Shown one piece after another: positions 6,493 through 39,017 of a stretch of 64,000 nt of DNA. This stretch comes from Amphiscolops sp. MND2022 (Eukaryota). The notes below the pieces were generated by a model. It saw only the letters and a program-made list of their open reading frames with translations. It had not been told where the DNA came from and made no database searches. A program made the position numbers and the translations under genes. The stretch covers positions 16,618,001 through 16,682,000 of the forward strand of contig OZ076409.1 of NCBI GenBank assembly GCA_964187785.1, in the 5' to 3' direction. Position 1 is the stretch's first letter. Each line of letters starts with the position of its first letter.

Positions 6493-9024
6493 GAGAAAGT
6501 GAAAGAAATACTAGAAACATCTAAAGTCGCATCCGAAAAATTTGGGAACATTGTGTCTTGTCATGATATCTTTAAAGCGAAAACAAGAGATCAACTAAAA
6601 TACCTTAGTGCTACAAGCAAAAAGATGCTAGTGAAACAAAAAGAAAAAATTCAGATGGATATTGAAAAACTTGAAGAAAATTGTTCTAAGGGAAATTGTT
6701 CTGACCAACAGATCAAACAGAACTTAGAGCACCTGACATGCCTCAAAAATAATCTTCAATTGATCAAAAATGAAGAATCTGAAAATTCATTTCAACAAAT
6801 CAAAAACTTCTTTAGGGAAGCCAATGATGGAAACACAAAAAATATCAAATGCTTAGCGAAAGCCTCAAGCTTAGCTAAGGATATCAAAAAGATTGAAAAA
6901 CAAGATGGATCATTCACAGAAGATCCTGACGAAATTTTAAATGAATTCAAATCTTTTTATGAGAAATTTAGCCAACCAAAATGGAAACCAACAGAAACAT
7001 CCTCGAAATCTCAGGATAAATTCATTGAAAAGTTTTTTAAACAAAAAAGGAAAAGCATTGAAAACATTGAACAATTGTTCAAAGAAACGTTGGAGGACCC
7101 CGACAACGAAATCACAGTATATGAAGTTGAAAAAGCTATCTCTAAACTGAACTCAAACAGTGCTCCTGGATCCGATGGACTTACAAGTCAATTATACCAA
7201 AACCACAAAAACTTTTTTGCCCCGTATCTTTCAAATCTATTTAATAAAATCAATGAAAATGGAGAAGTTCCGGACTCATTTAAACATGCAATCATCAAAG
7301 TAATTCCTAAGAAAAATAATTCACTGAAGGTATCCGAATTTCGGCCAATTAGTCTCATTAATACGGATCAAAAAATTCTTTCTCATGTTCTAGCAGAAAG
7401 ACTCAAACCTATTTTATCAGTATTAATTGGTAATCATCAAAACGCTCATTTACCAAATAGAAATATACATATTGCCATACAAAAAATTCAGCATTACGCC
7501 CATGAAACTACTCGTAGTCAATCACTTATCGCTATTGACTTCAGTAAAGCTTTCGACTGTGTAGAGCGTAGCTTTTTACAAAAACTGATTGAAAAATGTC
7601 CAATCGATAAGTTTACTCAAGAAATGATTTTACTTACGTACAAGGATACTTATGCTTTCATTGGAATGAAAAATGGAATTTCCACAAAATTCAAAATAGA
7701 TAGAGGGGTGAGACAAGGCTGTCCTCTCTCAGCATTGATTTTCAATATTTGTCTTGAACCTCTTCTACAAAGAATTCAAAAATCAAAATACATAAAATCA
7801 AAACAACAAACAAAATGTATTGCCTACGCAGATGATATAACGATCAGCCTCTACAACAAATCTCTTCGGAAGCTATTGATTATTCTGGATCATTTTCACG
7901 AAATAGCAGGCTTAGAAGTTAATTTAGCCAAAACTGAAATCCTTTCGAAAGCGGACAAATTATTTGTATCGGAAAAACTAACAAGAGTTACCACAACAAA
8001 AATTCTTGGAGTTTACATTTCGCTGAATAAAACTCTCAAAAAAGAAACCAAGAACGCAATAACGAATGCTTTTAACTCAACAGAAAAGTTCATACTAAAA
8101 AATAGTTCGTTCCGTGCGAGAGCTAGAAATATTGAGACTTTTATCTACTCGAAATTAATTCATCATCTGAGACACGAAAATTTGTATAAAAAATTTCTTC
8201 GAAAAGTTCAATCGAAAATAATAGATGTTTTCTGGCTGTACAAAAAACACAATGTTAAAAAAAAAATTCTTGAGCTACCAATTGAAGAGGGCGGAGTAAA
8301 CCTCAAGAACTTCTCCAAATACTACCTAACTGCCAAGATTATGAACTTGAAGTTCCTAGCGGTTAACCCAAAGGAGAGAAAATACATACAAGAATTAAAG
8401 AAATCAAAATTTTTTTCAGAATTAGAAAAACACTTCGAAAAACAACACATTGAAATCCTAGAACTGAACCCAGAAGAACTTATAATCCAACATCATTTCA
8501 CTACGCTTAATATAACAAAAGAGACAACTTCGAAAGAAATTTATACTTTTTTGAACAACTCCTCAATAAACGTCCCACCGCCTCTAAAAACTGAAGTTAC
8601 TGCAACAAAACAAAATATAGCACCCGAAATTTTGAACTCAGTTACAAAGAACATCTGGAAAAACAAAAAACTCACTTCGTTTGATAAAAACTATCTTTAC
8701 TGCTTCCTAATGAATTCGTATCTAGATAAACAAGACAAGTGGCTTAAAAATCTTGTTCTCCAACCACTATGTTTCGCATGTGAAGCAGAATTTGAAACAT
8801 GGGACCATTTAATGTTTTCTTGTAAAAATTTGAAAACGTTAACATTGAAGTTGAACGTTTTTTCATGGAAGGAAATATGGCTTGATCGAAGTTGTCTCTC
8901 TCAAAAACTCCTTGTAGCAATAATGCTCTCGTCGTGGACAGAATCAATTGGAGACTACTTAAAATATTTTCTGGAACGTATGAAAGTAATACTAATACCA
9001 GTTGCAAATCTATCTGATAATTGA
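6493..9024 (+). CDS. Partial ORF2 (RT plus C-terminal CCHC zinc finger), N-terminally truncated but uninterrupted
   Basis: APGSDG, RPISLIN, IDFSKAFD, GVRQGCPLS, YADD, CFACEAEFETWDHLMFSC; begins just after the point where the EN domain ends in family B. Confidence 0.92.
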   Translation, partial: EKVKEILETSKVASEKFGNIVSCHDIFKAKTRDQLKYLSATSKKMLVKQKEKIQMDIEKLEENCSKGNCSDQQIKQNLEHLTCLKNNLQLIKNEESENSFQQIKNFFREANDGNTKNIKCLAKASSLAKDIKKIEKQDGSFTEDPDEILNEFKSFYEKFSQPKWKPTETSSKSQDKFIEKFFKQKRKSIENIEQLFKETLEDPDNEITVYEVEKAISKLNSNSAPGSDGLTSQLYQNHKNFFAPYLSNLFNKINENGEVPDSFKHAIIKVIPKKNNSLKVSEFRPISLINTDQKILSHVLAERLKPILSVLIGNHQNAHLPNRNIHIAIQKIQHYAHETTRSQSLIAIDFSKAFDCVERSFLQKLIEKCPIDKFTQEMILLTYKDTYAFIGMKNGISTKFKIDRGVRQGCPLSALIFNICLEPLLQRIQKSKYIKSKQQTKCIAYADDITISLYNKSLRKLLIILDHFHEIAGLEVNLAKTEILSKADKLFVSEKLTRVTTTKILGVYISLNKTLKKETKNAITNAFNSTEKFILKNSSFRARARNIETFIYSKLIHHLRHENLYKKFLRKVQSKIIDVFWLYKKHNVKKKILELPIEEGGVNLKNFSKYYLTAKIMNLKFLAVNPKERKYIQELKKSKFFSELEKHFEKQHIEILELNPEELIIQHHFTTLNITKETTSKEIYTFLNNSSINVPPPLKTEVTATKQNIAPEILNSVTKNIWKNKKLTSFDKNYLYCFLMNSYLDKQDKWLKNLVLQPLCFACEAEFETWDHLMFSCKNLKTLTLKLNVFSWKEIWLDRSCLSQKLLVAIMLSSWTESIGDYLKYFLERMKVILIPVANLSDN

Positions 9025-9115
9025 TGATATGATGCAATTCTGATCTAATGAATTCCAGATTGATCTTTTGTAAAAAAAAGTGTTGATATTATTCATGATT
9101 AATTGAATTTTTGAA
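6493..9115 (+). mobile_element. Family A non-LTR retrotransposon (L1/Tx1-like), 5'-truncated, in SL exon
   Basis: 18-bp TSD AGCCTAATTGTTGTGATA (6475-6492, 9116-9133); carries an RT reading frame lacking the endonuclease. Confidence 0.93.
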
Positions 9116-9116
9116 A

Positions 9117-15589: not shown

Positions 15590-17571
15590 CGGCGTTACTC
15601 TGTCAGCCTGCAAACTTCGTTTGCACAGCGCCATCTTGCAAATTTTGCAGCAAAAGTTGCAAAAGTAATGACTAATTTGAACACGAGTGAGCTTGATCAA
15701 CATCATAATGAAAATGTTGAGCAAAATTGTTACAAAAATGCAGTTATTTCCTCGTCGAAATCGAACTCAAATATGGACAAATTACCAATTATTATCAACT
15801 TTGCCTTACCACTGACATCTGAAATGTTCAAAAACAGCAAATTACTGGATTCAATGTTTGTGGAAGCTGTTATGGCCGTCAAAAACCGACTTATCTCCAA
15901 TGAAATTACCATCTTCAAAACTACAATTTTACGCAACAAAGGCAATTTGAAGTGTATTACTGTGATCATTCCTTACAAACTTGAAAATGCAGCTTCCTCT
16001 CTTATTCACGAGGGCATTACTCTTCGCAATCGGAAAATACGGCCTTATTCTGTCAAATATTCCAACCCGAACAACAATGTCTATCCAAAAAGATTACCAA
16101 TATCTTTCCGAAACCTACCACACTTTCTGACGGATGAGGATATTTTGAGTAGCTGTGGTCTTCAAAACTTCAAATTTAGTAGCAAAATTTCTCATCAACA
16201 ACGACGACTTCCTGATAGCAGCCTTTTTTATACAGGAGAGGCAAGAATTACAGTTTTAATTGACAATGAGAATGAGGAAAGTTTACTACAAAACTGGGCC
16301 AATAATGCATATGACAAAATGTTTAGTTCCAGTGGCATTTTTTTCAAATGTTGCTGTATCCCACTCCTCGAATGCTCTTTATGCGTCAATGAGAACCTTC
16401 CCAGTGCTCATCAACAATCAAGATGCCCAAAACAACTATCAGACGAACAGCAAATACAGAAAAACAGTGAATCTCAGAACCAAAAGTTAACAACTGACTA
16501 CGTTATGGAAACTGCAGAAACAGAGCCAATGTCTAATGAACCTGAACTGTCAGATTCAGATGATGCTGAACCAATCTCAAAGGCGCCAAAGCAGACCGAT
16601 GATGGTACTGAAACCGAATGCAATAACAACGTGGCAGAAACTGAACAACCATGCATTAACAACTCAAAGAAAGATACCAATCCTATGCAAAAACCTAAAC
16701 TAATACATCGCTCAACTGAATGGGAATCCTCAACAGACCTTGCCCGAAATCAAGCAGATGACCAACAGTCAACGGCAAAGCATGGATATCATGAATACCC
16801 ATTCTTTTTGGAAAAGAAACAAAACAAAATACTGGCACCCGAAACTATTTTCAACGAAATACCTCCTATAAAAGAACATGTGATCAAAACCCAACAAACT
16901 TCTGGCTACATCAATACACTAGACAAGGAAAAGAAAATTCAAAGGACCTTTTCACTCGTACAACCACTGAAGAAAGAAAAACTCGAAGATCTTTTATCTG
17001 AATCAAACTGGAAACATTCTGACTCTAACACTATTTTAACTTCTCTTTATGAATTTTACTCATTGATCCGGAAGTTTGATCCATTCTATGATGCTACAAA
17101 CCACCAAATTTACACTATTAATCTGCAGAATAAAATTGTACAAGTTTTCACTGCAGTTGAAAACTTATACAATGAAAACAAAAACTAAACTGAAAAATTT
17201 CGGACCTTTTTGACTGGAACTTTAAAGTTCTAAATCTCTACAATACCATCATCAATCAACCCAATTCCCAATTCTTTTCGAGCACTAGTTGTTCGCAACC
17301 TGTATGCAAAAAACGGGTTTTGAGAACAAACTCCTTCCAGGAGCAAACATCTTTTTTTTCATACATTCTCCAAACTACATTATACTAACTTCATACCAAA
17401 AAAAAACATTCCCATTTTGGCGCTTTCTCAAAAATGCCATAACCAAGCATCTTCATCTACATACTTCTGCTTTTTCAACACTTCAGTTACTCATATACTC
17501 ATTTTATACATATACCTTAGACTTCATTACTTTTTACTTGTAAATTCTCAGTTATTAATATAGTCTTCAAA
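15590..17571 (+). mobile_element. Family C ORF1-only non-autonomous retroelement, copy C1, in SL exon
   Basis: 18-bp TSD (15572-15589, 17572-17589); single ORF, no RT; last 25 nt identical to family B. Confidence 0.9.
15668..17188 (+). CDS. ORF1/gag-like protein, 506 aa: RRM-like region, CCHC knuckle, acidic linker, uncharacterised C-terminal domain
   Basis: YPKRLPISFRNLP...YTGEARITV and CSLC...HQQSRC align by eye with family B ORF1; first ATG at 15668 (the track GTG start lies in the TSD). Confidence 0.85.
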   Translation: MTNLNTSELDQHHNENVEQNCYKNAVISSSKSNSNMDKLPIIINFALPLTSEMFKNSKLLDSMFVEAVMAVKNRLISNEITIFKTTILRNKGNLKCITVIIPYKLENAASSLIHEGITLRNRKIRPYSVKYSNPNNNVYPKRLPISFRNLPHFLTDEDILSSCGLQNFKFSSKISHQQRRLPDSSLFYTGEARITVLIDNENEESLLQNWANNAYDKMFSSSGIFFKCCCIPLLECSLCVNENLPSAHQQSRCPKQLSDEQQIQKNSESQNQKLTTDYVMETAETEPMSNEPELSDSDDAEPISKAPKQTDDGTETECNNNVAETEQPCINNSKKDTNPMQKPKLIHRSTEWESSTDLARNQADDQQSTAKHGYHEYPFFLEKKQNKILAPETIFNEIPPIKEHVIKTQQTSGYINTLDKEKKIQRTFSLVQPLKKEKLEDLLSESNWKHSDSNTILTSLYEFYSLIRKFDPFYDATNHQIYTINLQNKIVQVFTAVENLYNENKN

Positions 17572-17799
17572 AGCCTAATTGTTGTGATAAACTTATCAAA
17601 TAGGTAAGTATTCCAACCCTATTGATAAGTTTTATTTGAAAGCTGACTGCGAAAGTGGTCTGCTGCCCAATTTTTTGAACAAGGAACAAGCTAGTCTGCA
17701 CTAACTTAAAAGTTACGCGTATTTTGACCGAGAAAATTTTCGTATCATTGTACGTAATTTTGTTGTTAAGCATATAAAGCCATTGATTTTACAATGATC

Positions 17800-17918
17800 G
17801 GCTACAACCATACCATGTTGAATGCACCGGTTCTCGTCCGATCACCGAAGTTAAACATTATAGGGCCTGGTTAGTACTTGGATGGGAGACCGCTTGGGAA
17901 CATCAGGTGTTGTAGCCT
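17800..17918 (+). rRNA. 5S rRNA variant (several substitutions)
   Basis: CTACAACC, AAACATTATAG, CATCAGG variants. Confidence 0.9.
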
Positions 17919-18494: not shown

Positions 18495-20480
18495 CGGCGT
18501 TACTCTGTCAGCCTGCAAACTTTGTTTGCACAGCGCCATCTTGCAAATTTTGCAGCAAAAGTTGCAAAAGTAATGACTAATTTGAACACGAGTGAGCTTG
18601 ATCAACATCATAATGAAAATGTTGAGCAAAATTGTTACAAAAATGCAGTTATTTCCTTGTCGAAATCGAACTCAAATATGGACAAATTACCAATTATTAT
18701 CAACTTTGCCTTACCACTGACATCTGAAATGTTCAAAAACAGCAAATTACTGGATTCAATGTTTGTGGAAGCTGTTATGGCTGTCAAAAACCGACTTAAC
18801 TCCAATGAAATTACCATCTTCAAAACTACAATTTTACGCAACAAAGGCAATTTGAAGTGTATTACTGTGATCATTCCTTACAAACTTGAAAATGCAGCTT
18901 CCTCTCTTATTCACGAGGGCATTACTCTTCGCAATCGGAAAATACGGCCTTATTCTGTCAATTATTCCAACCCAAACAACAATGTCTATCCAAAAAGATT
19001 ACCAATATCTTTCCGAAACCTACCACACTTTCTGACGGATGAGGATATTTTGAGTAGCTGTGGTCTTCAAAACTTCAAATTTAGTAGCAAAATTTTTCAT
19101 CAACAACGACGACTTCCTGATAGCAGCCTTTTTTATACAGGAGAGGCAAGAATTACAGTTTTAATTGACAATGAGAATGAGGAAAGTTTACTACAAAACT
19201 GGGCCAATAATGCATATGACAAAATGTTTAGTTCCAGTGGCATTTTTTTCAAATGTTGCTGTATCCCACTCCTCGAATGCTCTTTATGCGTCAATGAGAA
19301 CCTTCCCAGTGCTCATCAACAATCAAGATGCCCAAAACAACTATCAGACGAACAGCAAATACAGAAAAACAGTGAATCTCAGAACCAGAAGTTAACAAAT
19401 GACTATGTTATGGAAACTGCAGAAACAGAGCCAATGTCTAATGAACCTGAACTGTCAGATTCAGATGATGCTGAACCAATCTCAAAGGCGCCAAAGCAGA
19501 CCGATGATGGTACTGAAACCGAATGCAATAACAACGTGGCAGAAACTGAACAACCATGCATTAACAACTCAAAGAAAGATACCCATCCTATGCAAAAACC
19601 TGTATTAATGCATCGCTCAACTGAATGGAAATCCTCAACAGACCTTGCCCGAAATCAAGCAGATGACCAACAGTCAACGGCAAAGCATGGATATCATGAA
19701 TACCCATTCTTTTTGGAAAAGAAACAAAACAAAATACTGGCACCCGAAACTATTTTCAACGAAATACCTCCTATAAAAGAACATGTGATCAAAACCCAAC
19801 AAACTTCTGGCTACATCAATACACTAGACAAGGAAAAGAAAATTCAAAGGACCTTTTCACTCGTACAACCACTGAAGAAAAAAAAACTCGAAGATCTTTT
19901 ATCTGAATCAAACTGGAAACATTCTGACTCTAACACTATTTTAACTTCTCTTTATGAATTTTACCAATTAATCCGGAAGTTTGATCCATTCTATGATGCT
20001 ACAAACCACCAAATTCATACTATTAATCTGGAGAATAAAATTGTACAAGTTTTCACCGCAGTTGAAAACTTATACAATGAAAACAAAAACTAAACTGAAA
20101 AATTTCGGACCTTTTTGACTGCAACTTTAAAGTTCTAAATCTCTACAATACCATCATCAATCAACCCAATTCCCAATTCTTTTCGAGCACTAGTTGTTCG
20201 CAACCTGTATGCAAAAAACGGGTTTTGAAAACAAACTCCTTCCAGGAGCAAACATCTTTTTTTCATAAATTCTCCAAACTACATTATACTAACTTCATAC
20301 CTAAAAAAAAAAAAACATTCCCATTTTGGCACTTTCTCAAAAATGCCATAACCAAGCATCTTCATCTACATACTTCAGCTTTTTCAACACTTCAGTTACT
20401 CATATACTCATTTTATACCTATACCTTAGACTTCATTACTTTTTACTTGTAAATTCTCAGTTATTAATATAGTCTTCAAA
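18495..20480 (+). mobile_element. Family C element, copy C2
   Basis: TSD 18477-18494 / 20481-20498. Confidence 0.9.
18573..20093 (+). CDS. Family C ORF1-like protein, 506 aa, intact
   Basis: Near-identical to 15668-17188. Confidence 0.85.
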   Translation: MTNLNTSELDQHHNENVEQNCYKNAVISLSKSNSNMDKLPIIINFALPLTSEMFKNSKLLDSMFVEAVMAVKNRLNSNEITIFKTTILRNKGNLKCITVIIPYKLENAASSLIHEGITLRNRKIRPYSVNYSNPNNNVYPKRLPISFRNLPHFLTDEDILSSCGLQNFKFSSKIFHQQRRLPDSSLFYTGEARITVLIDNENEESLLQNWANNAYDKMFSSSGIFFKCCCIPLLECSLCVNENLPSAHQQSRCPKQLSDEQQIQKNSESQNQKLTNDYVMETAETEPMSNEPELSDSDDAEPISKAPKQTDDGTETECNNNVAETEQPCINNSKKDTHPMQKPVLMHRSTEWKSSTDLARNQADDQQSTAKHGYHEYPFFLEKKQNKILAPETIFNEIPPIKEHVIKTQQTSGYINTLDKEKKIQRTFSLVQPLKKKKLEDLLSESNWKHSDSNTILTSLYEFYQLIRKFDPFYDATNHQIHTINLENKIVQVFTAVENLYNENKN

Positions 20481-20827: not shown

Positions 20828-21790
20828 TTTTTGTCAGAAATGTGGTTTAACTTCGGTGACAGTTTTGCAAAAGGGGTCAAATTGAAAAGATAGCAAAAAA
20901 CGGACAACGCCATTAGAAAGAGCGTCCAAAAAAACCCCCATGCTGAAATTTTCGCCGCCATCACTTGAATTTTCATTGAGTTATGTCATTTTTACTATTT
21001 TCACAAAATGTGGTTTAACTTCGGTGACAGTTTTGCAAAAGGGGTCAAAATGAACAGATAGCAAAAAACGGACAACGGCATTGGAAAGAGGGCCCAAAAT
21101 TACCCCTAAAACGTGTTTTTCACACTCCTGAGTCGACTTTTGATAATACATGTAATTTCATTTTTAAGCTTACTAATTTATGCTTTTCAGCATACATTTT
21201 CGTAATAGAGTCAAAATTTTGCTTTCTCACAATTTTTCTGGAATATTTTTGTTTCATCAGATGTCAATAACTTGAAACGTCGTCTTTTCATGAGAATTTC
21301 TCCTCAAAACAAGTTGTTGGCTGGTAATGGTAAGTCCGTACCGCAGATAGGAGTCTCGCGCTCCAAAAATTGACTCTTTGCTTTTAGCCTAATTGTTGTG
21401 ATTTTACCCGAGGCGAACCGCTGCCAAATTTTAAAATCACCTCTCTCTGAGCTGTTTCAGCTCAAAAAGCACAAATTAATTTCGATTTGTCTTTCTCTGC
21501 TTTTCTGAACCGACTTTCTTTTACTTTACTTTTCCGAAATTTAACCAAATTTCGTTATTGAAATGAAACAAAAAGCGTTCAAAAAAACGCCAAATTCGCA
21601 AGAAAAATTCCCAAAATACTCTCCAACTGTTACTTTCGAAGGCAAAGCCTCCATCAGCGAGAATAACAATAGGGCCAACCCGACCAATTCTACTTCAATA
21701 AAAAAAAACAAAATGCGAAAAACTTTGCATCAGAATTCCTAAAACACAACGAAACTTCCAAAGCTTCATACAACAACAAATTACCATTAA

Positions 21791-23580
21791 ATGACTCTAC
21801 TTCTCAAGTCTTCAACGCAACTGGTCCCACAAGCCCTGTTTACGGCCACGGAACCAGTATTACTGCAGAAAAAAATTACATGCATTATCTCAACGATGAA
21901 ATTCCGATAACGTATGCTGGGTCCCAAAACTCGGAGGAAAATCCTAATTATTCAACACCCACTTGCAGTAGAGATGAAAATGAAGTATCAGCAGGAGCAT
22001 CTTAACAAGCCCAAGCCTCCAACATACCAACAATGCAAACCCAGTGTCTACAAAACCCAAAATTCCCAGATCAATGCAACATACCACATCCGAAAAGTCA
22101 AACTGAGAATTATATGTCGACAAGGCAAAATCAGCTATCTTATATTTCTTCTCTGCCGGACTTCACCAGTCTGTATCAACAGGAAGAGCAATGTTCTGGT
22201 GACCGCTACGTCTCTCCCATTGAGAGAAAGCGCCACTACAGCCATGATGAAATGGCTGCTGCAAATTCAGAATCGTTAAACAATAACTTCTCAAATCTTG
22301 GCGTCCCAGCGCAACAAGGACAAACAAGAGCAAACAATGCTTACAATGACTCAAGCCTCAACAATGCCACTCAGCGTACGCTGGAAGAAGCGGTAAACAA
22401 CGCAATAGAAGTCACAAATCCTTCTGCCGAAGCAATGTATACCGACACAATAAGAGGACAAACAAACCCAAAACCGACTACTAACAACATGGCCTCATAT
22501 TCTCAGGTAACATGCCTCAGAAATCCAACCGCTACTGTTACTAACAAAATACACAAACTCAGAATTGTTCCACCTCTGAGAAAAGAGCATTTTACAAATG
22601 CCTCAACAATGCAACAGGAAATAGATAAAGCGTACCAGGAGATCCTTGTGGCGTTTTCACCCAACATAAGGCACCTAATAACAATCTCGAGAACTATCGT
22701 CAAGGTGTCCGAGAAAAACTATCAAGTACTGCAAGTGATAGCACCAAAAGAAGCCGAAAATGATATTAATAACATGAAGCTATCCGGTCTTACCATAATG
22801 GGACGGACTGTGTTTCCCTCCTCAGAAGATTTTTGGCAAGTCCGACAATCCTTTTACCCCAAACCCGCTACAATAAGAAGTAACAATGTTCCAGTAATTT
22901 GCACCGACGAAGAGTTGTTCAAAACTCTTGAAATTCCCGCCTTCCTGGAATACGGTGCCATAGTGAGAGAAACCAAACATACAGGTATCGGTCCAGTCCA
23001 TACAGGCAAAGTTGCGATCAAAATAAAAATCAACTCTGCAGAGGAAGAAACAGAACTCCGCAAATGGTCATTCAACAAGGCCTTTGCTAACCCAGCAGAA
23101 TGGATGGGAATAGACATACCTACCAGCATCCCGATGCTCCATACTTGCAAAAGATGCAAAGAGGAAAAACGGCCACAATTCCGGGGCCATGAGGAAGAGT
23201 GGTGCCGAATTCGCAGGTCCACCCCACACGAACCCCAAAATGAGAACCAACCTTCGCTCAATAGGAACCCAGAACTGCCTACAGCTCCTTCTGAGCTGAC
23301 TAAACAAACCTCAGCCTCGACAACAGTCAACGAAGAAACGATGGAAAATGAGAACCACAACCATCAAGAAGACACGGTGATCCACAACCAGGATGAGGAA
23401 TGGCAAACGGTGGGCAAACAACAAGGACAAAAGCGTCCCCAGAAGGTTCCTTCAGAAACATCCTCGAGCTCAAGGAACAGCAGCCCGACCAAAGCTCCAA
23501 AACCGAAACAACCAGCACTACAAAACAACAGTTGCCCCAATGTACCAGACGATCAGCAAAAACGGTATGATGGCTCTTGA
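21791..23580 (+). pseudogene. Family B ORF1 (gag-like, RRM-like plus CCHC); 5' part has a frameshift and a stop relative to B2, open from 22033
   Basis: YPKPATIRSNNVP, HTGKVAIKI, CKRCKEEKRPQFRGHEEEWC; A-run difference near 21870 and TAA near 22003 versus B2. Confidence 0.8.
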
Positions 23581-26500
23581 TATTCTATGTGTGAACATCA
23601 GAGGCCTTGCTAATCCAGCAAAGCTTCTCGAGATCTGTGAAAAAAGGCAGATCCTAGGCAAAAATAATGAAACATGCATTGTAATACAAGAAACTAAGAT
23701 AATTAAAATGAAGGAGGAACATGAAAAAATACTAAAAAAATACAAATTAAAAAGTGAGGAAGTACCTGCTATAGGAGGGTCCGGGGGGCTACTAACAATC
23801 ATACCAGAATTTTTGCAATACCAAGTTCTTCTGAAAGGTACAAGTTGCCTTGCACTCAAGATTAGCAAAAACAACCAAGAAACGATTCTGATCAATACCT
23901 ATATCAATCCAAAAGACTTCAGAGCTGAAAACTTCTGCGCATGTTTAGAAGAATTAGGCTTAGAACCCACCCATAGAATTCTTATAGCAGGTGATTTCAA
24001 TGCAATAGACAACGAAGATATTGGAAAAAACGATGCCTTGAATAACTCAATCAAAAATAATGATATCAGAATCTTACGCTATAAACGCATAATACCTTAT
24101 ATGAACTCACTGCTTTTGAAGGACCAAGTTAAAGAACAAAATACCGTTCAACCGACTCACTACGATAAGAGAACAAAGAAAAATAGCAGAATTGACTATA
24201 TTTTTAGCAACTGCATAAGTGACGAGCAAAAAATCGAATTGTTCAACATTACAAAAACTGATCACAAATGTCTTTTTCTACGAACCCACGAAGAAAGGTT
24301 AGACTTGAAGCAATCGCAATGGAAACTTAACGATACGGTACTTGATGACAGATTCCGAATCAACGAAATTTTAAAAAATGCAATCCCAAAACTTAAGAAC
24401 AAGCTGTCACTTGCAGAAACCTACGATAATTTTAAAGCCAACGTAAGAGATGACCTCCGACAGCTTTGTATTGAAAAACGAAACATTGAAAAAGCCTACG
24501 AAAGGCAACTTATACGTGACATTAAAGACCTAGAACATGAACGGTTTGTATGCAACAACAAACCAGAAGAAATAAATCGAATCCAAAAAGAGATTGACAG
24601 AAAAAATGATGAAATCGATGCTCTGATCAACAACCAAAATAGAATGCAATTAAATAAAATCAAAAATTTCTACAATGAAGTGAACGAAGGTAACCCAAAA
24701 CAGGTTAAACAACTTGTTTCCGCTCTTAGACCGAGTACAAGAATTAACAAACTGAAAAAAGACAATGGCGAAACAATCAACTCTCAAAATGATATTGTAG
24801 AAGAGATAACTACTTACTACCAAAATCTTTATGAGAGTCATGCTCCTCCTAGTCCAAACAACTATGAGCCCACATTACAACAAACAACTTACCTACAAAA
24901 ATATTTTAAAAGAATTGAGAACAAGCTCTCTACCTATGATAATACGAACATAAATGAAGACGAGATCACAGAATTTGAAGTAGAACAGGCGATTTTGAAA
25001 CTGAATAACAAGAGCGCTCCCGGACCCGACGGTCTCACATCTAATCTATACCAAACTTATAAAAACTTCTTTATTCCCCTATTAACCGACCTATTCAATG
25101 ACATTATACGGAAAAAACAAGTTCCTCCTTCATTTAATCTAGCAATCATCAAACTCATTCCAAAGAAATACGCCTCTGAAAAAGTCTCCGACCTCAGACC
25201 AATAAGTCTAATCAATTCAGACCAAAAAATCTTGTCACATGTCCTGACTAAAAGAATCAAACCTCTCTTCGATCATGTCATAGGAAATCATCAATATGCT
25301 CATCTCACTGACAGAAATATTCACACAGCCCTAACTAAAATCCGCCAATACTCAACAAGCTTGAGAAGCAAAGAAGCCCTGTGTGCTCTAGACTTCTCCA
25401 AAGCGTTTGATTGTGTTGACAGGGGTTTTCTCATGGCTATTCTTAAATATCTTCCAATTCCAGAAACAACAATCAATCTCATTGAAGCTCTCTATCAAAA
25501 TACGATCTCAATCATTGACGTCAACTCCGAGTTTTCTAAACCAATTAAAATTACAAGAGGAGTCCGTCAAGGATGTCCACTATCAGCAATCCTTTTTATC
25601 CTAGTGATAGAGCCCCTGCTGGACAAAATCCAAAGATCAAGAAAAATCAAATCTACTAACCATCAAAAATCGATCGCTTTTGCCGATGACATCACAGTAT
25701 CCATTAAAACGAAGTCAATAAACAAACTTATCAAGTTTCTTGATGATTTTGAAATGATAGCAGGGCTTGCAATAAACTATGATAAATCAGAAATGCTGAC
25801 CAAAAACCACAACATCTTCTTCAGAAACCCGGAAAAGACATTGAAAACGGTCAATCGAGTCAAAGTTCTTGGAGTTTTTATCACAACTAAATACGGAATA
25901 GACTGTAACACAAAAAACAAAATAGAAACAATTTTAAGTCAGGCAACAAAATTCACCTCAAAAAATATGAGCTTCCGAGCACGGGCAATCAATTTAGAGA
26001 CCTTCATTCTTTCCAAAATAACCTATCAATTGAGACACTTTACCAAAAACAAAACCTATATGAAAAAACTCAATGCTAAAATGGTTGATGGCTTTTGGAA
26101 TCATAAAAAACATAACGTCAATCAAGAAATTGCGCATTTGGAACGCAAAGAAGGTGGTATAGGCCTAAAAAAACATCAATCGAAGAGTACTAGTCGCAAA
26201 ACTCATGAATCTAAAAGTATCCCTTCTGGGTCCCAACAACCATGATAATTACAATGACTTCAAAGGCTCAAAATGGTTCAAACAAATTGAGAGAGATTTG
26301 AAGAACGAGAATATCGATTTTGTAGAAATCACAAACGAAATAATGAGAATTCAATATCTTTCCCAAACTATTGAAATCAACAACAATACAAAATCAAAAG
26401 ACATCCATCAAATATTACGAAACCCAACAATTAGTAATGCATGCCTTCCTCGCATAACAAAAACTGCTACGAAACAAAATATTTCCCCCGATCGCATTTT

Positions 26501-26882
26501 GTGCGTTCTGAAGTCACTCTGGAATAACACGAAATTGAAGTCATTCGACAAAAACTACATTTATTGCTTCTTAATGGATGCTTACCTTGACAAGGAAGAA
26601 AAATGGGAAAAACTTCTAACTCCTCATCCACTTTGTTTCCAATGTGGTGCGGAATTCGAAACATACTCTCACCTGATGTTTGATTGCTCTCTAACCCAAG
26701 ACCTAAAAAAGAGCCTAAAATACCAAAACTGGCAACATATATGGACTGACCGAACCGGGAAATCCCAAAAACTGTTAGTTGCAATGCTTCTATCCTCTTG
26801 GACCGAGGAAGAAGGACCTTATTTAAGTTTTCTCAGATCTAAACTAACTAACCACAACCCTAAGCAGGTACCAATAAACTAA
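23567..26882 (+). pseudogene. Family B ORF2 (APE endonuclease, RT, CCHC), ~1104 aa consensus; one +1 frameshift in an A run near 26170
   Basis: EN motifs VNIRGL, IQET, AGDFN, SRIDYIF, TDH; RT motifs APGPDG, LDFSKAFD, GVRQGCPLS, FADD; CFQCGAEFETYSHLMFDC. Confidence 0.92.
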
Positions 26883-27254
26883 AACACAACCTTCCTTAAG
26901 TTCACACATAGATAGATGTATTCATTTGTCTATTGTTTTTGTTATTACTATGTACAATTTTTTTTATATATGAGTTTTTTTTTTGTTTTAGTTTTGTAAT
27001 ACTCAGTTATTAATATAGTCTTCAAAAGCCTAATTGTTGTGATAAACTTATTAAATAGGTAAGTATTCCAACCCTATTGATAAGTTTTATTTGAAAGCAG
27101 ACTGCGAAAGTGGTCTGCTGCCCAATTTTTTGAACAAGGAACAAGCTAGTCTGCACTAACTTAAAAGTTACGCGTATTTTGACCGAGAAAATTTTCGTAT
27201 CATTGTACGTAATTTTGTTGTTAAGCATATAAAGCTATTGATTTTACAATGATC

Positions 27255-27949: not shown

Positions 27950-29338
27950 GCAAAATTTCTCATCAACAACGACGACTGCCTGATAGCAGCCTTTTTTATA
28001 CAGGAGAGGCAAGAATTACAGTTTTAATTGACAATGAGAATGAGGAAAGTTTACTACAAAACTGGGCCAATAATGCATATGACAAAATGTTTAGTTCCAG
28101 TGGCATTTTTTTCAAATGTTGCTGTATCCCACTCCTCGAATGCTCTTTATGCGTCAATGAGAACCTTCCCAGTGCTCATCAACAATCAAGATGCCCAAAA
28201 CAACTATCAGACGAACAGCAAATACAGAAAAACAGTGAATCTCAGAACCAAAAGTTAACAACTGACTACGTTATGGAAACTGCAGAAACAGAGCCAATGT
28301 CTAATGAACCTGAACTGTCAGATTCAGATGATGCTGAACCAATCTCAAAGGCGCCAAAGCAGACCGATGATGGTACTGAAACCGAATGCAATAACAACGT
28401 GGCAGAAACTGAACAACCATGCATTAACAACTCAAAGAAAGATACCAATCCTATGCAAAAACCTAAACTAATACATCGCTCAACTGAATGGGAATCCTCA
28501 ACAGACCTTGCCCGAAATCAAGCAGATGACCAACAGTCAACGGCAAAGCATGGATATCATGAATACCCATTCTTTTTGGAAAAGAAACAAAACAAAATAC
28601 TGGCACCCGAAACTATTTTCAACGAAATACCTCCTATAAAAGAACATGTGATCAAAACTCAACAAACTTCTGGATACATCAATACACAAGACAAGGAAAA
28701 GAAAATTCAAAGGACATTTTCACTAGTACAACCACTGAAGAAAGAAAAACTCGAAGATCTTTTATCTGAATCAAACTGGAAACATTCTGACTCTAACACT
28801 ATTTTAACTTCTCTTTATGAATTTTACTCATTGATCCGGAAGTTTGATCCATTCTATGATGCTACAAACCACCAAATTTACACTATTAATCTGCAGAATA
28901 AAATTGTACAAGTTTTCACTGCAGTTGAAAACTTATACAATGAAAACAAAAACTAAACTGAAAAATTTCGGACCTTTTTGACTGGAACTTTAAAGTTCTA
29001 AATCTCTACAATACCATCATCAATCAACCCAATTCCCAATTCTTTTCGAGCACTAGTTGTTCGCAACCTGTTTGCAAAAAACGGGTTTTGAGAACAAACT
29101 CCTTCCAGGAGCAAACATCTTTTTTTCATACATTCTCCAAACTACATTATACTAACTTCATACCAAAAAAAAACATTCCCATTTTGGCGCTTTCTCAAAA
29201 ATGCCATAACCAAGCATCTTCATCTACATACTTCTGCTTTTTCAACACTTCAGTTACTCATACACTCATTTTATACATATACCTTAGACTTCATTACTTT
29301 TTACTTGTAAATTCTCAGTTATTAATATAGTCTTCAAA
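27950..29338 (+). mobile_element. Family C element, copy C3, 5'-truncated by ~590 bp
   Basis: TSD 27932-27949 / 29339-29356; starts mid-ORF at GCAAAATTTCTCATC; frame open to 28956. Confidence 0.9.
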
Positions 29339-30261: not shown

Positions 30262-32244
30262 CGGCGTTACTCTGTCAGCCTGCAAACTTTGTTTGCACAG
30301 CGCCATCTTCCAAATTTTGCAGCAAAAGTTGCAAAAGTAATGACTAATTTGAACACGAGTGAGCTTGATCAACATCATAATGAAAATGTTGAGCAAAATT
30401 GTTACAAAAATGCAGTTATTTCCTTGTCGAAATCGAATTCAAATATGGACAAATTACCAATTATTATCAACTTTGCCTTACCACTGACATCTGAAATGTT
30501 CAAAAACAGCAAATTACTGGATTCAATGTTTGTGGAAGCTGTTATGGCCGTCAAAAACCGACTTAACTCCAATGAAATTACCATCTTCAAAACTACAATT
30601 TTACGCAACAAAGGCAATTTGAAGTGTATTACTGTGATCATTCCTTACAAACTTGAAAATGCAGCTTCCTCTCTTATTCACGAGGGCATTACTCTTCGCA
30701 ATCGGAAAATACGGCCTTATTCTGTCAATTATTCCAACCCAAACAACAATGTCTATCCAAAAAGATTACCAATATCTTTCCGAAACCTACCACACTTTCT
30801 GACGGATGAGGATATTTTGAGTAGCTGTGGTCTTCAAAACTTCAAATTTAGTAGCAAAATTTTTCATCAACAACGACGACTTCCTGATAGCAGCCTTTTT
30901 TATACAGGAGAGGCAAGAATTACAGTTTTAATTGACAATGAGAATGAGGAAAGTTTACTACAAAACTGGGCCAATAATGCATATGACAAAATGTTTAGTT
31001 CCAGTGGCATTTTTTTCAAATGTTGCTGTATCCCACTCCTCGAATGCTCTTTATGCGTCAATGAGAACCTTCCCAGTGCTCATCAACAATCAAGATGCCC
31101 AAAACAACTATCAGACGAACAGCAAATACAGAAAAACAGTGAATCTCAGAACCAGACGTTAACAAATGACTATGTTATGGAAACTGCAGAAACAGAGCCA
31201 ATGTCTAATGAACCTGAACTGTCAGATTCAGATGATGCTGAACCAATCTCAAAGGCGCCAAAGCAGACCGATGATGGTACTGAAACCGAATGCAATAACA
31301 ACGTGGCAGAAACTGAACAACCATGCATTAACAACTCAAAGAAAGATACCCATCCTATGCAAAAACCAGTACTAATGCATCGCTCAACTGAATGGAAATC
31401 CTCAACAGACCTTGCCCGAAATCAAGCAGATGACCAACAGTCAACGGCAAAGCATGGATATCATGAATACCCATTCTTTTTGGAAAAGAAACAAAACAAA
31501 ATACTGGCACCCGAAACTATTTTCAACGAAATACCTCCTATAAAAGAACATGTGATCAAAACCCAACAAACTTCTGGCTACATCAATACACTAGACAAGG
31601 AAAAGAAAATTCAAAGGACCTTTTCACTCGTACAACCACTGAAGAAAGAAAAACTCGAAGATCTTTTATCTGAATCAAACTGGAAACATTCTGACTCTAA
31701 CACTATTTTAACTTCTCTTTATGAATTTTACCAATTAATCCGGAAGTTTGATCCATTCTATGATGCTACAAACCACCAAATTTACACTATTAATCTGCAG
31801 AATAAAATTGTACAAGTTTTCACTGCAGTTGAAAACTTATACAATGAAAACAAAAACTAAACTGAAAAATTTCGGACCTTTTTGACTGCAACTTTAAAGT
31901 TCTAAATCTCTACAATACCATCATCAATCAACCCAATTCCCAATTCTTTTCGAGCACTAGTTGTTCGCAACCTGTATGCAAAAAACGGGTTTTGAAAACA
32001 AACTCGTTCCAGGAGCAAACATCTTTTTTTTCATAAATTCTCCAAACTACATTATACTAACTTCATACCTAAAAAAAAACATTCCCATTTTGGCGCTTTC
32101 TCAAAAATGCCATAACCAAGCATCTTCATCTACATACTTCAGCCTTTTCAACACTTCAGTTACTCATATACTCATTTTATACCTATACCTTAGACTTCAT
32201 TACTTTTTACTTGTAAATTCTCAGTTATTAATATAGTCTTCAAA
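30262..32244 (+). mobile_element. Family C element, copy C4
   Basis: TSD 30244-30261 / 32245-32262. Confidence 0.9.
30340..31860 (+). CDS. Family C ORF1-like protein, 506 aa, intact
   Basis: Near-identical to 15668-17188. Confidence 0.85.
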   Translation: MTNLNTSELDQHHNENVEQNCYKNAVISLSKSNSNMDKLPIIINFALPLTSEMFKNSKLLDSMFVEAVMAVKNRLNSNEITIFKTTILRNKGNLKCITVIIPYKLENAASSLIHEGITLRNRKIRPYSVNYSNPNNNVYPKRLPISFRNLPHFLTDEDILSSCGLQNFKFSSKIFHQQRRLPDSSLFYTGEARITVLIDNENEESLLQNWANNAYDKMFSSSGIFFKCCCIPLLECSLCVNENLPSAHQQSRCPKQLSDEQQIQKNSESQNQTLTNDYVMETAETEPMSNEPELSDSDDAEPISKAPKQTDDGTETECNNNVAETEQPCINNSKKDTHPMQKPVLMHRSTEWKSSTDLARNQADDQQSTAKHGYHEYPFFLEKKQNKILAPETIFNEIPPIKEHVIKTQQTSGYINTLDKEKKIQRTFSLVQPLKKEKLEDLLSESNWKHSDSNTILTSLYEFYQLIRKFDPFYDATNHQIYTINLQNKIVQVFTAVENLYNENKN

Positions 32245-32591: not shown

Positions 32592-33553
32592 TTTTTGTCA
32601 GAAATGTGGTTTAACTTCGGTGACAGTTTTGCAAAAGGGGTCAAATTGAAAAGATAGCAAAAAACGGACAACGCCATTAGAAAGAGCGTCCAAAAAAACC
32701 CCCATGCTGAAATTTTTGCCGCCATCACTTGAATTTTCATTGAGTTATGTCATTTTTACTATTTTCACAAAATGTGGTTTAACTTCGGTGACAGTTTTGC
32801 AAAAGGGGTCAAAATGAACAGATAGCAAAAAACGGACAACGGCATTGGAAAGAGGGCCCAAAATTACCCCTAAAACGTGTTTTTCACACTCCTGAGTCGA
32901 CTTTTGATAATACATGGAATTTCATTTTTAAGCTTACTAATTTATGCTTTTCAGCATACATTTTCGTAATAGAGTCAAAATTTTGCTTTCTCACAATTTT
33001 TCTGGAATATTTTTGTTTCATCAGATGTCAATAACTTGAAACGTCGTCTTTTCATGAGAATTTCTCCTCAAAACAAGTTGTTGGCTGGTAATGGTAAGTC
33101 CGTACCGCAGATAGGAGTCTCGCGCTCCAAAAATTGACTCTTTGATTTTAGCCTAATTGTTGTGATTTTACCCGAGGCGAACCGCTGCCAAATTTTAAAA
33201 TCACCTCTCTCTGAGCTGTTTCAGCTCAAAAAGCACAAATTAATTTCGATTTGTCTTTCTCTGCTTTTCTGAACCGACTTTCTTTTACTTTACTTTTCCG
33301 AAATTTAACCAAATTTCGTTATTGAAATGAAACAAAAAGCGTTCAAAAAAACGCCAAATTCGCAAGAAAAATTCCCAAAATACTCTCCAACTGTTACTTT
33401 CGAAGGCAAAGCCTCCATCAGCGAGAATAACAATAGGGCCAACCCGACCAATTCTACTTCAATAAAAAAAACAAAATGCGAAAAACTTTGCATCAGAATT
33501 CCTAAAACACAACGAAACTTCCAAAGCTTCATACAACAACAAATTACCATTAA

Positions 33554-35344
33554 ATGACTCTACTTCTCAAGTCTTCAACGCAACTGGTCCCACAAGCCCT
33601 GTTTACGGCCACGGAACCAGTATTACTGCAGAAAAAAAATTACATGCATTATCTCAACGATGAAATTCCGATAACGTATGCTGGGTCCCAAAACTCGGAG
33701 GAAAATCCTAAATATTCAACACCCACTTGCAGTAGAGATGAAAATGAAGTATCAGCAGGAGCATCTCAACAAGCCCAAGCCTCCAACATACCAACAATGC
33801 AAACCCAGTGTCTACAAAACCCAAAATTCCCAGATCAATGCAACATACCACATCCGAAAAGTCAAACTGAGAATTATATGTCGACAAGGCAAAATCAGCT
33901 ATCTTATATTTCTTCTCTGCCGGACTTCACCAGTCTGTATCAACAGGAAGAGCAATGTTCTGGTGACCGCTACGTCTCTCCCATTGAGAGAAAGCGCCAC
34001 TACAGCCATGATGAAATGGCTGCTGCAAATTCAGAATCGTTAAACAATAACTTCTCAAATCTTGGCGTCCCAGCGCAACAAGGACAAACAAGAGCAAACA
34101 ATGCTTACAATGACTCAAGCCTCAACAATGCCACTCAGCGTACGCTGGAAGAAGCGGTAAACAACGCAATAGAAGTCACAAATCCTTCTGCCGAAGCAAT
34201 GTATACCGACACAATAAGAGGACAAACAAACCCAAAACCGACTACTAACAACATGGCCTCATATTCTCAGGTAACATGCCTCAGAAATCCAACCGCTACT
34301 GTTACTAACAAAATACACAAACTCAGAATTGTTCCACCTCTGAGAAAAGAGCATTTTACAAATGCCTCAACAATGCAACAGGAAATAGATAAAGCGTACC
34401 AGGAGATCCTTGTGGCGTTTTCACCCAACATAAGGCACCTAATAACAATCTCGAGAACTATCGTCAAGGTGTCCGAGAAAAACTATCAAGTACTGCAAGT
34501 GATAGCACCAAAAGAAGCCGAAAATGATATTAATAACATGAAGCTATCCGGTCTTACCATAATGGGACGGACTGTGTTTCCCTCCTCAGAAGATTTTTGG
34601 CAAGTCCGACAATCCTTTTACCCCAAACCCGCTACAATAAGAAGTAACAATGTTCCAGTAATTTGCACCGACGAAGAGTTGTTCAAAACTCTTGAAATTC
34701 CCGCCTTCCTGGAATACGGTGCCATAGTGAGAGAAACCAAACATACAGGTATCGGTCCAGTCCATACAGGCAAAGTTGCGATCAAAATAAAAATCAACTC
34801 TGCAGAGGAATAAAAAGAACTCCGCAAATGGTCATTCAACAAGGCCTTTGCTAACCCAGCAGAATGGATGGGAATAGACATACCTACCAGCATCCCGATG
34901 CTCCATACTTGCAAAAGATGCAAAGAGGAAAAACGGCCACAATTCCGGGGCCATGAGGAAGAGTGGTGCCGAATTCGCAGGTCCACCCCACACGAACCCC
35001 AAAATGAGAACCAACCTTCGCTCAATAGGAACCCAGAACTGCCTACAGCTCCTTCTGAGCTGACTAAACAAACCTCAGCCTCGACAACAGTCAACGAAGA
35101 AACGATGGAAAATGAGAACCACAACCATCAAGAAGACACGGTGATCCACAACCAGGATGAGGAATGGCAAACGGTGGGCAAACAACAAGGACAAAAGCGT
35201 CCCCAGAAGGTTCCTTCAGAAACATCCTCGAGCTCAAGGAACAGCAGCCCGACCAAAGCTCCAAAACCGAAACAACCAGCACTACAAAACAACAGTTGCC
35301 CCAATGTACCAGACGATCAGCAAAAACGGTATGATGGCTCTTGA
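33554..35344 (+). pseudogene. Family B ORF1 (~596 codons) with a premature TAA at 34811-34813
   Basis: GAA in B1 is TAA here; the frame continues to 35344. Confidence 0.8.
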
Positions 35345-38300
35345 TATTCTATGTGTGAACATCAGAGGCCTTGCTAATCCAGTAAAGCTTCTCGAGATCT
35401 GTGAAAAAAGGCAGATCCTAGGCAAAAATAATGAAACATGCATTGTAATACAAGAAACTAAGATAATTAAAATGAAGGAGGAACATGAAAAAATACTAAA
35501 AAAAATACAAATTAAAAAGTGAGGAAGTACCTGCTATAGGAGGGTCCGGGGGGCTACTAACAATCATACCAGAATTTTTGCAATACCAAGTTCTTCTGAA
35601 AGGTACAAGTTGCCTTGCACTCAAGATTAGCAAAAACAACCAAGAAACGATTCTGATCAATACCTATATCAATCCAAAAGACTTCAGAGCTGAAAACTTC
35701 TGCGCATGTTTAGAAGAATTAGGCTTAGAACCCACCCATAGAATTCTTATAGCAGGTGATTTCAATGCAATAGACAACGAAGATATTGGAAAAAACGATG
35801 CCTTGAATAACTCAATCAAAAATAATGATATCAGAATCTTACGCTATAAACGCATAATACCTTATATGAACTCACTGCTTTTGAAGGACCAAGTTAAAGA
35901 ACAAAATACCGTTCAACCGACTCACTACGATAAGAGAACAAAGAAAAATAGCAGAATTGACTATATTTTTAGCAACTGCATAAGTGACGAGCAAAAAATC
36001 GAATTGTTCAACATTACAAAAACTGATCACAAATGTCTTTTTCTACGAACCCACGAAGAAAGGTTAGACTTGAAGCAATCGCAATGGAAACTTAACGATA
36101 CGGTACTTGATGACAGATTCCGAATCAACGAAATTTTTAAAAATGCAATCCCAAAACTTAAGAACAAGCTGTCACTTGCAGAAACCTACGATAATTTTAA
36201 AGCCAACGTAAGAGATGACCTCCGACAGCTTTGTATCGAAAAACGAAACATTGAAAAAGCCTACGAAAGGCAACTTATACGTGACATTAAAGACCTAGAA
36301 CATGAACGGTTTGTATGCAACAACAAACCAGAAGAAATAAATCGAATCCAAAAAGAGATTGACAGAAAAAATGATGAAATCGATGCTCTGATCAACAACC
36401 AAAATAGAATGCAATTAAATAAAATCAAAAATTTCTACAATGAAGTGAACGAAGGTAACCCAAAACAGGTTAACCAACTTGTTTCCGCTCTTAGACCGAG
36501 TACAAGAATTAACAAACTGAAAAAAGACAATGGCGAAACAATCAACTCTCAAAATGATATTGTAGAAGAGATAACTACTTACTACCAAAATCTTTATGAG
36601 AGTCATGCTCCTCCTAGTCCAAACAACTATGAGCCCACATTACAACAAACAACTTACCTACAAAAATATTTTAAAAGAATTGAGAACAAGCTCTTTACCT
36701 ATGATAATACGAACATAAATGAAGACGAGATCACAGAATTTGAAGTAGAACAGGCGATTTTGAAACTGAATAACAAGAGCGCTCCCGGACCCGACGGTCT
36801 CACATCTAATCTATACCAAACTTATAAAAACTTCTTTATTCCCCTATTAACCGACCTATTCAATGACATTATACGGAAAAAACAAGTTCCTCCTTCATTT
36901 AATCTAGCAATCATCAAACTCATTCCAAAGAAATAAGCCTCTGAAAAAGTCTCCGACCTCAGACCAATAAGTCTAATCAATTCAGACCAAAAAATCTTGT
37001 CACATGTCCTGACTAAAAGAATCAAACCTCTCTTCGATCATGTCATAGGAAATCATCAATATGCTCATCTCACTGACAGAAATATTCACACAGCCCTAAC
37101 TAAAATCCGCCAATACTCAACAAGCTTGAGAAGCAAAGAAGCCCTGTGTGCTCTAGACTTCTCCAAAGCGTTTGATTGTGTTGACAGGGGTTTTCTCATG
37201 GCTATTCTTAAATATCTTCCAATTCCAGAAACAACAATCAATCTCATTGAAGCTCTCTATCAAAATACGATCTCAATCATTGACGTCAACTCCGAGTTTT
37301 CTAAACCAATTAAAATTACAAGAGGAGTCCGTCAAGGATGTCCACTATCAGCAATCCTTTTTATCCTAGTGATAGAGCCCCTGCTGGACAAAATCCAAAG
37401 ATCAAGAAAAATCAAATCTACTAACCATCAAAAATCGATCGCTTTTGCCGATGACATCACAGTATCCATTAAAACGAAGTCAATAAACAAACTTATCAAG
37501 TTTCTTGATGATTTTGAAATGATAGCAGGGCTTGCAATAAACTATGATAAATCAGAAATGCTGACCAAAAACCACAACATCTTCTTCAGAAACCCGGAAA
37601 AGACATTGAAAACGGTCAATCGAGTCAAAGTTCTTGGAGTTTTTATCACAACTAAATACGGAATAGACTGTAACACAAAAAACAAAATAGAAACAATTTT
37701 AAGTCAGGCAACAAAATTCACCTCAAAAAATATGAGCTTCCGAGCACGGGCAATCAATTTAGAGACCTTCATTCTTTCCAAAATAACCTATCAATTGAGA
37801 CACTTTACCAAAAACAAAACCTATATGAAAAAACTCAATGCTAAAATGGTTGATGGCTTTTGGAATCATAAAAAACATAACGTCAATCAAGAAATTGTGC
37901 ATTTGGAACGCAAAGAAGGTGGTATAGGCCTAAAAAACATCAATCGAAGAGTACTAGTCGCAAAACTCATGAATCTAAAAGTATCCCTTCTGGGTCCCAA
38001 CAACCATGATAATTACAATGACTTCAAAGGCTCAAAATGGTTCAAACAAATTGAGAGAGATTTGAAGAACGAGAATATCGATTTTGTAGAAATCACAAAC
38101 GAAATAATGAGAATTCAATATCTTTCCCAAACTATTGAAATCAACAACAATACAAAATCAAAAGACATCCATCAAATATTACGAAACCCAACAATTAGTA
38201 ATGCATGCCTTCCTCGCATAACAAAAACTGCTACGAAACAAAATATTTCCCCCGATCGCATTTTGTGCGTTCTGAAGTCACTCTGGAATAACACGAAATT

Positions 38301-38646: not shown

Positions 38647-39017
38647 AACACAACCTTCCTTAAGTTCACACATAGATAGATGTATTCATTTGTCTATTGT
38701 TTTTGTTATTACTATGTACAATTTTTTTTATATATGAGTTTTTTTTTGTTTTAGTTTTGTAATACTCAGTTATTAATATAGTCTTCAAAAGCCTAATTGT
38801 TGTGATAAACTTATTAAATAGGTAAGTATTCCAACCCTATTGATAAGTTTTATTTGAAAGCAGACTGCGAAAGTGGTCTGCTGCCCAATTTTTTGAACAA
38901 GGAACAAGCTAGTCTGCACTAACTTAAAAGTTACGCGTATTTTGACCGAGAAAATTTTCGTATCATTGTACGTAATTTTGTTGTTAAGCATATAAAGCTA
39001 TTGATTTTACAATGATC

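Follow-up and report, generated by a model that had tools for sequence, protein, structure and literature searches.

An unclassified C-terminal domain defines a lineage of ORF1-only LINE derivatives at the spliced leader of an acoel

Families C and D, inserted in a tandem array within the window (the whole 64,000-nucleotide stretch of Amphiscolops sp. DNA analysed here), are ORF1-only non-autonomous LINE derivatives. Both are bounded by target duplications, both lack ORF2, and the single protein of each ends in a domain of about 125 residues (CTD). The CTD is a real, selected and unclassified domain that defines the ORF1-only lineage. Our confidence in this description and in the distribution reported below is high; the function of the domain we infer. 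The ORF1 core of C, comprising tandem RRM-like domains and a zinc knuckle, is common to autonomous ORF1s, and the architecture given for C ORF1 in Table 1 is taken from a model of the homologous D ORF1.

Table 1. Positions of the elements, genes and domains of the window
Feature	Position	Strand	Remarks
5' target-duplication copy of C1	15572..15589	+	First bases of SL exon; probable 5' end of the C1 element RNA
C1, whole element	15590..17571	+	ORF1 only, about 1.98 kb
Family C ORF1	15668..17188	+	506 aa; tandem RRM-like core, zinc knuckle, acidic linker, CTD
C ORF1 core	15785..16438	+	Two RRM-like domains and CxxC-H-C knuckle (about 16373-16426)
Acidic linker of C ORF1	16427..16789	+	Little conserved; disordered in D model, pLDDT <50
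CTD of family C ORF1	16790..17188	+	About 125 aa, predicted α/β, no family match; CTD profile match 16790-17164
C1 3' UTR	17189..17572	+	Blocks common to ORF1-only families, about 17330-17400
SL RNA gene remaining 3' of the C1 insertion	17573..17685	+	SL exon, GT donor, hairpin, U tract that we take to be Sm-like
5S rRNA gene of the 905-bp repeat	17800..17918	+	
CTD, C copy 2	19695..20069	+	Profile match
CTD, 5'-truncated C copy	28558..28932	+	Profile match; element 27950-29339
CTD, C copy 4	31462..31836	+	Profile match
CTD, C copy 5	40915..41289	+	Profile match
CTD, C copy 6	46365..46739	+	Profile match
D1, whole element	42620..44242	+	ORF1 only, 1.62 kb
D ORF1	42693-43856	+	387 aa
CTD of D ORF1	43491..43856	+	Copy modelled
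D2, second D copy	48071..48657	+	Cut by assembly gap
Family A copy	6493..9116	+	Autonomous family, 5'-truncated here
B1	21403..27027	+	Two ORFs: ORF1 without CTD, APE-RT ORF2 with frameshift
B2, second B copy	33167..38790	+	Several breaks

Positions 1-48,070 of the window form a tandem array with a 905-bp unit and contain 23 5S rRNA genes. Each unit carries a spliced leader (SL) that is identical to the published SL of the acoel Symsagittifera roscoffensis (PMC9911081) and that is followed by a GT donor. On this basis the unit is likely a 5S/SL RNA repeat and its host an acoel. Eleven long insertions in the window array share one site, SL +1: a 5'-truncated copy of A, two copies of B, six of C (one 5'-truncated) and two of D (one cut by the gap). 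The target duplication comprises 17-18 nt of the SL start wherever both element ends are visible. Across the whole array and loci L022-L080 this target is common to nine ORF1-only, or passenger, families and no fewer than eight autonomous families of APE type, with SL +1 insertion found for A, B, J, K, L041, L047, L050 and L055 alongside the passengers. Each insertion site keeps a regenerated SL start, so that newer elements insert ahead of older ones, and seven element-to-element junctions occur in the array and loci. Passengers are also found off target. Short inserts of 95-115 bp that encode no protein occupy a second site of the repeat, the SL exon/donor junction (2660-2754, 3677-3789 and 13679-13791), and their 3' end is like that of the autonomous family L059 (L059:1709-6580), which targets the same exon/donor site. 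The array ends inside D2 at a 200-N assembly gap (48658-48857). Further along the window, inverted repeats about 7 kb apart (53666-53864 and 60617-60818) are possibly DNA transposon ends, and an ORF on the minus strand (61729-62409) may encode the C-terminal portion of a DEG/ENaC channel, which it resembles.

The first-pass annotation had proposed that C and D share a colinear C-terminal domain that B ORF1 lacks, and both halves of this proposal are borne out. C (16796-17185) and D (43491-43853) align over 121 columns, 27 of them identical (22%), at E 4e-10, and every motif quoted in the annotation was found. The Smith-Waterman score of 103 was reached by 0 of 5000 shuffles (mean 29, sd 5, maximum 56), and the attempt to refute the domain through the significance of this alignment failed. 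B ORF1 aligns with C and D over the RRM-knuckle core alone (E 2e-16 and 8e-14, respectively), and the tails of B and A ORF1 score 27-28 against the CTD, which is the shuffle level. A further suggestion, that the last motif of the domain might be a relic of the APE start, is not supported. Comparison by hhalign with a 49-sequence ORF2 alignment gave probabilities of at most 0.4% in nine of nine segments, where the positive control reached 97.7%, and in the CTD model the APE-start-like motif is predicted to form a strand and turn of a β-hairpin followed by another strand. Profile comparison likewise led us to reject the CTD as a duplicated RRM core, and at the DNA level the C CTD matches A ORF2 over 27 nt, but this stretch is A-rich, lacks profile support and is read as chance.

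Genome searches with the CTD yielded at least 45 near-full matches for C (95-100%), at least 24 for D, and diverged relatives of both. The B core has at least six matches at 98-100%, and passengers thus outnumber B among these lower bounds. Sorting of 60 genome regions gave at least nine ORF1-only families with a CTD, which we label C, D, E, F, G, H, I, M and N; the copies of H, I and N examined are broken or chimeric. Against the CTD profile, the 13 ORF1 rows that contain the complete domain score 113-162 bits, and three passenger rows cut before or within it score 18.9, 0.7 and -0.1 bits. None of 18 autonomous ORF1 rows, which include two near-copy pairs, is recognised (best 7.2 bits). Nor was a CTD found in the closest autonomous clade (L058 type, dispersed and mostly decayed) at the ten loci where the clade is visible, two further loci of the survey being without a usable element, and full-length copies of family A elsewhere in the genome also have an ORF1 without it. 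The domain is therefore not a standard part of ORF1 in the related autonomous elements sampled, and the second refutation offered by the annotation fails as well. Forty-nine CTD hits reach the end of the profile; 48 have downstream sequence, and 47 of these have no APE or RT within 1.5 kb. The exception, L031, at first sight joins a CTD to APE/RT but is best taken as a chimera produced by deletion within a passenger-helper tandem, which is present intact beside it. At L021 part of a helper-type ORF1 is fused in frame to an H-type ORF1 with CTD, without ORF2, and two such chimeras stand in tandem (L021:5161-6669 and 8230-9741).

Among 1.84 billion protein representatives there were 17 CTD hits, comprising one repeat artefact and 16 ORF1s or fragments of this group, one of which carries an unrelated N-terminus. 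P0008 lacks a near counterpart in this genome among the best 108 of 330 candidates, the top match being about 45-47% over its length. P0008, P0002, P0005, P0006 and P0060 sit on contigs of 1.4-2.1 kb, and because this is the size of an ORF1-only element they suggest ORF1-only relatives in other genomes. A metagenome locus scan found no relatives. The range of the CTD lineage known so far is narrow, so that the wider reach is limited. The literature searched, that outside subscription journals and Repbase Reports, yielded nothing on this domain, no ORF1-only passengers with an added domain, no acoel SL-targeting APE elements and no APE-type LINEs that target the SL exon and likely use its promoter; the elements may already be catalogued in those journals or reports.

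AlphaFold2 predicts the D CTD as a compact domain (mean pLDDT 89, pTM 0.82) with a hairpin-helix-hairpin N-terminal half and a C-terminal half built of a helix and a three-stranded meander. The full-length D model (pTM 0.53) comprises two RRM-like domains, the knuckle, a disordered linker and the CTD, whose position relative to the RRM core is not fixed. Conserved CTD positions are mostly hydrophobic, together with D10, D95 and N109 (invariant, 22/22) and basic residues at 73, 91 and 93; no conserved His, Cys or Glu or catalytic-looking set was found. Per-member searches of Pfam and PHROGs matched no family in more than one of 13 members, C ORF1 has no Pfam match at E≤1, and D ORF1 matches no L1 ORF1 family. 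Foldseek gave no CTD match at E≤0.001 in the PDB and viral libraries, and VIA placed 0 of 48,161 chains at Z≥5. The best VIA rows (HutX, GNAT and DOCK, up to Z 4.0) are common arrangements. Ribosomal S2, the best PDB sequence-profile hit (E 0.024), aligns in short patches, and ESM Atlas hits to an AbiGi cluster are weak, of low recognition and not reproduced with a near-identical query; both were rejected. A two-repeat internal structure (hhalign probability 2.6%, E 0.017) was not accepted. Such absence of a fold match is no proof of a new fold.

In a tree of the ORF1 core, the 16 rows of CTD type fall into two well-supported groups, which meet L058 at an unresolved node. A single origin of the CTD is recovered in 40% of bootstrap trees, and long branches meet at this point. 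This tempers the claim of a parasite-specific conserved domain. Its exclusivity to ORF1-only families stands, but C and D are not independent cases, and because CTD-bearing ORF1s cluster, exclusivity may record one event and shared ancestry rather than a repeated need. Divergence within the lineage is deep, passenger cores being down to 21-31% identical and the CTDs of C, F and M only 17-20% identical to one another. With tree lengths of 12.8 for the CTD and 5.8 for the core (2.2x), the CTD evolves at roughly double the rate of the RRMs, and it does not follow the core topology (rejected, AU p 0.0006). One CTD subtype (34%) is common to M and P0006, whose cores are just 24% identical. A swap of CTDs between families is likely, and short of proof because the alignment of this subtype is poorer over the first half. 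Substitutions between D and H (dN 0.55 versus dS 2.15) indicate purifying selection on the CTD; between families, synonymous sites are near or at saturation and dN is lower. In F and G the CTD has survived the loss of the zinc knuckle.

The putative helpers are placed by their sequences in the L1 group, with an ORF2 of APE, RT and C-terminal zinc-binding domain. In Pfam, RVT_1 lies above and APE and zf-RVT below the cut-off, and among solved structures human L1 ORF2p is closest (E 1e-55; R2, E 2e-27). Their named homologues are squamate RT proteins at 28-35%. The B lineage is the candidate helper lineage of C. ORF2 is interrupted in both window copies of B, so that 'autonomous' describes the lineage and not these copies; uninterrupted ORF2s of related families are present elsewhere in the genome. 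An autonomous relative (L054:986-6640) is inserted, in the manner of Keno, in an array of U2 snRNA genes, its 3' end being fused to U2. Helper ORF1s, including that of B1 (22006-23580), carry a conserved motif within an otherwise disordered tail: a W-x-x-V plus basic pattern is present in 13 of 20 autonomous rows, a fourteenth matching outside the tail only, and in none of 17 passenger rows, five of which are partial or without the knuckle anchor.

Passengers show the marks of trans-retrotransposition, namely target duplication, 5' truncation and a 3' end in common with a helper. The terminal 26 nt of C are identical to the 3' end of B (match score 27). The 3' ends of F and M match L049, L050 and J, with scores of 31-33 to L049, and those of D, E, G, H and I match helpers weakly (12-18). 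By eye, G shares its 5' end with B, and I with J. F and M also share the 5' UTR of C (L027, L030, L036 and L072), and as their ORF1 cores are only 35-47% identical to that of C, an exchange of 5' ends is suggested. Six dispersed copies (L027, L030, L036, L045, L049 and L074) start at SL +1 or +2, and none is preceded by array spacer, from which we infer transcription from the SL promoter. A Gag-like ORF of an LTR element lies downstream of a dispersed F copy (L027:7699-9219). The dispersed tandem at L074:1584-8700 starts at SL +2 with a complete K helper, to which a 5'-clipped M passenger is directly joined, and is possibly the product of a template jump or of co-mobilisation. Within the 3' UTR, blocks are conserved among passengers (window 17262-17400 and 43917-44054) despite near-saturated coding dS.

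We tentatively propose, at somewhat less than an even chance, that the CTD is a tethered, non-catalytic binding module that helps the passenger particle to capture the reverse transcriptase and endonuclease machinery of a helper. The element lies at SL +1 with ORF1 alone and would be transcribed from the upstream SL promoter. Judging from the fold, its RNA would be coated by the two RRMs, and by the knuckle where this is kept; its helper-like 3' end would serve as a template for helper ORF2p. The CTD and acidic linker take the place of the disordered basic W-x-x-V tail of most helper ORF1s, and the CTD would bind helper ORF2p or the helper particle and offset the preference of the helper for its own RNA. 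We read the domain in this way because it is tethered, non-catalytic, fast-evolving, exchangeable and confined to elements that borrow ORF2p. The distribution is consistent with capture (0/18 autonomous rows; 47/48 hits without downstream APE/RT), as are a confidently modelled compact domain independent of the core (pLDDT 89; full-length pTM 0.53), purifying selection (D-H dN 0.55, dS 2.15), the lack of catalytic-looking conserved residues, retention of the CTD in the knuckle-less F and G, and the helper-type tail seen in 13/20 autonomous against 0/17 passenger rows. The fast CTD tree and rejected core topology would suit a variable binding module, and passenger 3' ends that match several helpers, together with the L074 tandem, point the same way. 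Four observations pull against capture: a single CTD origin is compatible with the tree, so exclusivity may reflect ancestry; CTD type is not linked to helper tail type, given that the 3' ends of C, F and M are alike and their CTDs only 17-20% identical; protein-free inserts of 110-120 bp at a site of the same repeat imply that a passenger may need no protein; and the passenger-specific 3' UTR blocks offer an RNA ligand instead. A bolder version, which we consider possible and on balance doubtful, makes the passengers an old, self-standing satellite lineage in which a dedicated hijacking CTD of new fold attaches to the ORF2p or particle of the helper, passes between families as a specificity module and allows switching of helpers within a shared spliced-leader niche.

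The UTR blocks lead to the alternative that the CTD binds nucleic acid, either the passenger's own RNA through these blocks or DNA of the SL locus, which we think unlikely though deserving of attention. Conserved basic and aromatic residues (W72, K/R73, R91, K/R93, F97 and Y98) would suit such a role, the blocks recur in families at or close to saturation in coding dS (80 nt at 82% between C and D), and a 12-nt UTR motif was counted only in loci with passengers. However, the same motif accompanies CTDs that are 13-27% identical, RNAalifold finds no consensus pairs in the 3' UTR block (single blocks fold at z -0.4 to -2.7, with a small hairpin predicted in some copies), recombination could explain the sharing, and the net charge of the CTD is near neutral. 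CTD residues 1-56 weakly match I-TevI (1t2t; VIA Z 3.2, rmsd 3.0, 44 aligned) and sCTP (8b6e; Z 3.0, rmsd 2.9, 48 aligned), which we take to be NUMOD1/IENR1-like small DNA-binding modules, but these Z values of about 3 lie within the list background, less than half of the domain is covered and none of 13 CTD members has Pfam support for such a module. Binding of a host factor (piRNA or other silencing, snRNA-type termination, SL snRNP, ribosome or import receptor) that protects or routes passenger RNA appears distinctly unlikely. Fast divergence over a kept hydrophobic core fits host conflict, and passengers without the basic tail of most helper ORF1s may need another nuclear route, yet helpers share promoter, target and host and do without a CTD, and positive selection is not readable from saturated inter-family dS. 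ORF1 proteins often oligomerise, and the CTD might serve self-association, with passenger ORF1p assembling on RNA or co-assembling with, and poisoning, helper ORF1p. The D, E and I ORF1s begin directly at the first RRM without an N-terminal extension, and the CTD model ends in a long terminal strand; against this, C, F, G and M have both N-terminal extensions and a CTD, and the CTD does not pack on the RRM core in the full-length model (pTM 0.53); the idea is improbable. Prediction of a two-copy CTD complex, with a score of 0.00, the alignment unused and the fold uncertain, speaks neither for nor against it. It is highly improbable that an abundant ORF1-only protein, with the CTD as localiser, brings its own and helper particles to SL/5S arrays, as HeT-A Gag takes TART Gag to telomeres (PMC2173066). 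The numbers would allow it (at least 45 C and 24 D CTD matches against at least six for the B core), but passengers also land off target, and Tx1-type target choice is mainly set by the endonuclease (PMC4494074). Least credible of all is an origin of the CTD as an ordinary ORF1 part of some autonomous family that has died out or escaped sampling, or as an ORF2/APE relic. Scoring of only the best 150 of 315 and 150 of 325 genome candidates leaves room for such a source, whereas the closest autonomous clade lacks the CTD, no ORF2 segment gives a profile match, and hits from apparently other genomes lie on ORF1-only-sized contigs (1.4-2.1 kb).

Among known systems the closest parallels are HAL1 and HeT-A. 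HAL1 is a non-autonomous L1-group derivative that encodes ORF1p alone and arose several times from mammalian L1 (PMC5753468). The elements here share this non-autonomous, ORF1-only character and, set against that account, add a deep radiation of families, a tandem-RRM/knuckle ORF1, an SL-exon target, termini of several helpers and an extra domain. HAL1 in the strict sense, of mammalian L1 origin with an L1-type ORF1p, does not describe them, the model showing a tandem RRM and knuckle and the host carrying an acoel SL. HeT-A belongs to the Jockey clade. It resembles the passengers in a Gag-type protein, a reverse transcriptase borrowed from a partner and a fixed repetitive target (PMC2173066), but it is telomeric, and the passengers show no sign of service to helper or host. 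The Tx1-clade elements Keno, Kibi, Koshi and Tx1-Mar are APE-type and target-specific, and partners including SINEs share their 3' tails (PMC4494074); the same features recur here, with a relative in this genome at a U2 gene like Keno. The available text of that account includes neither an SL target nor ORF1-only passengers, and the helpers are Tx1-like in their sequence-specific insertion into a multicopy gene. NeSL also inserts into spliced-leader exons, those of nematodes, but groups with the restriction-like-endonuclease Utopia lineage (PMC4640811), whereas the helpers here have an APE and are nearest to human L1 ORF2p among solved structures. The elements are thus a variant of the HAL1/HeT-A-like kind, so far from a narrow lineage.

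ORF1-only elements are usually seen as halved LINEs in which ORF1 is kept as a chaperone. That a diversified ORF1-only lineage carries its own conserved domain suggests a role for the passenger protein beyond that of the helper's. The CTD itself is small, presumably soluble and a candidate new fold. Were it to override the cis-preference of ORF2p, it would offer a way to study how LINE machinery is captured by non-autonomous RNAs, and possibly a part for loading cargo RNA onto site-specific retrotransposons.
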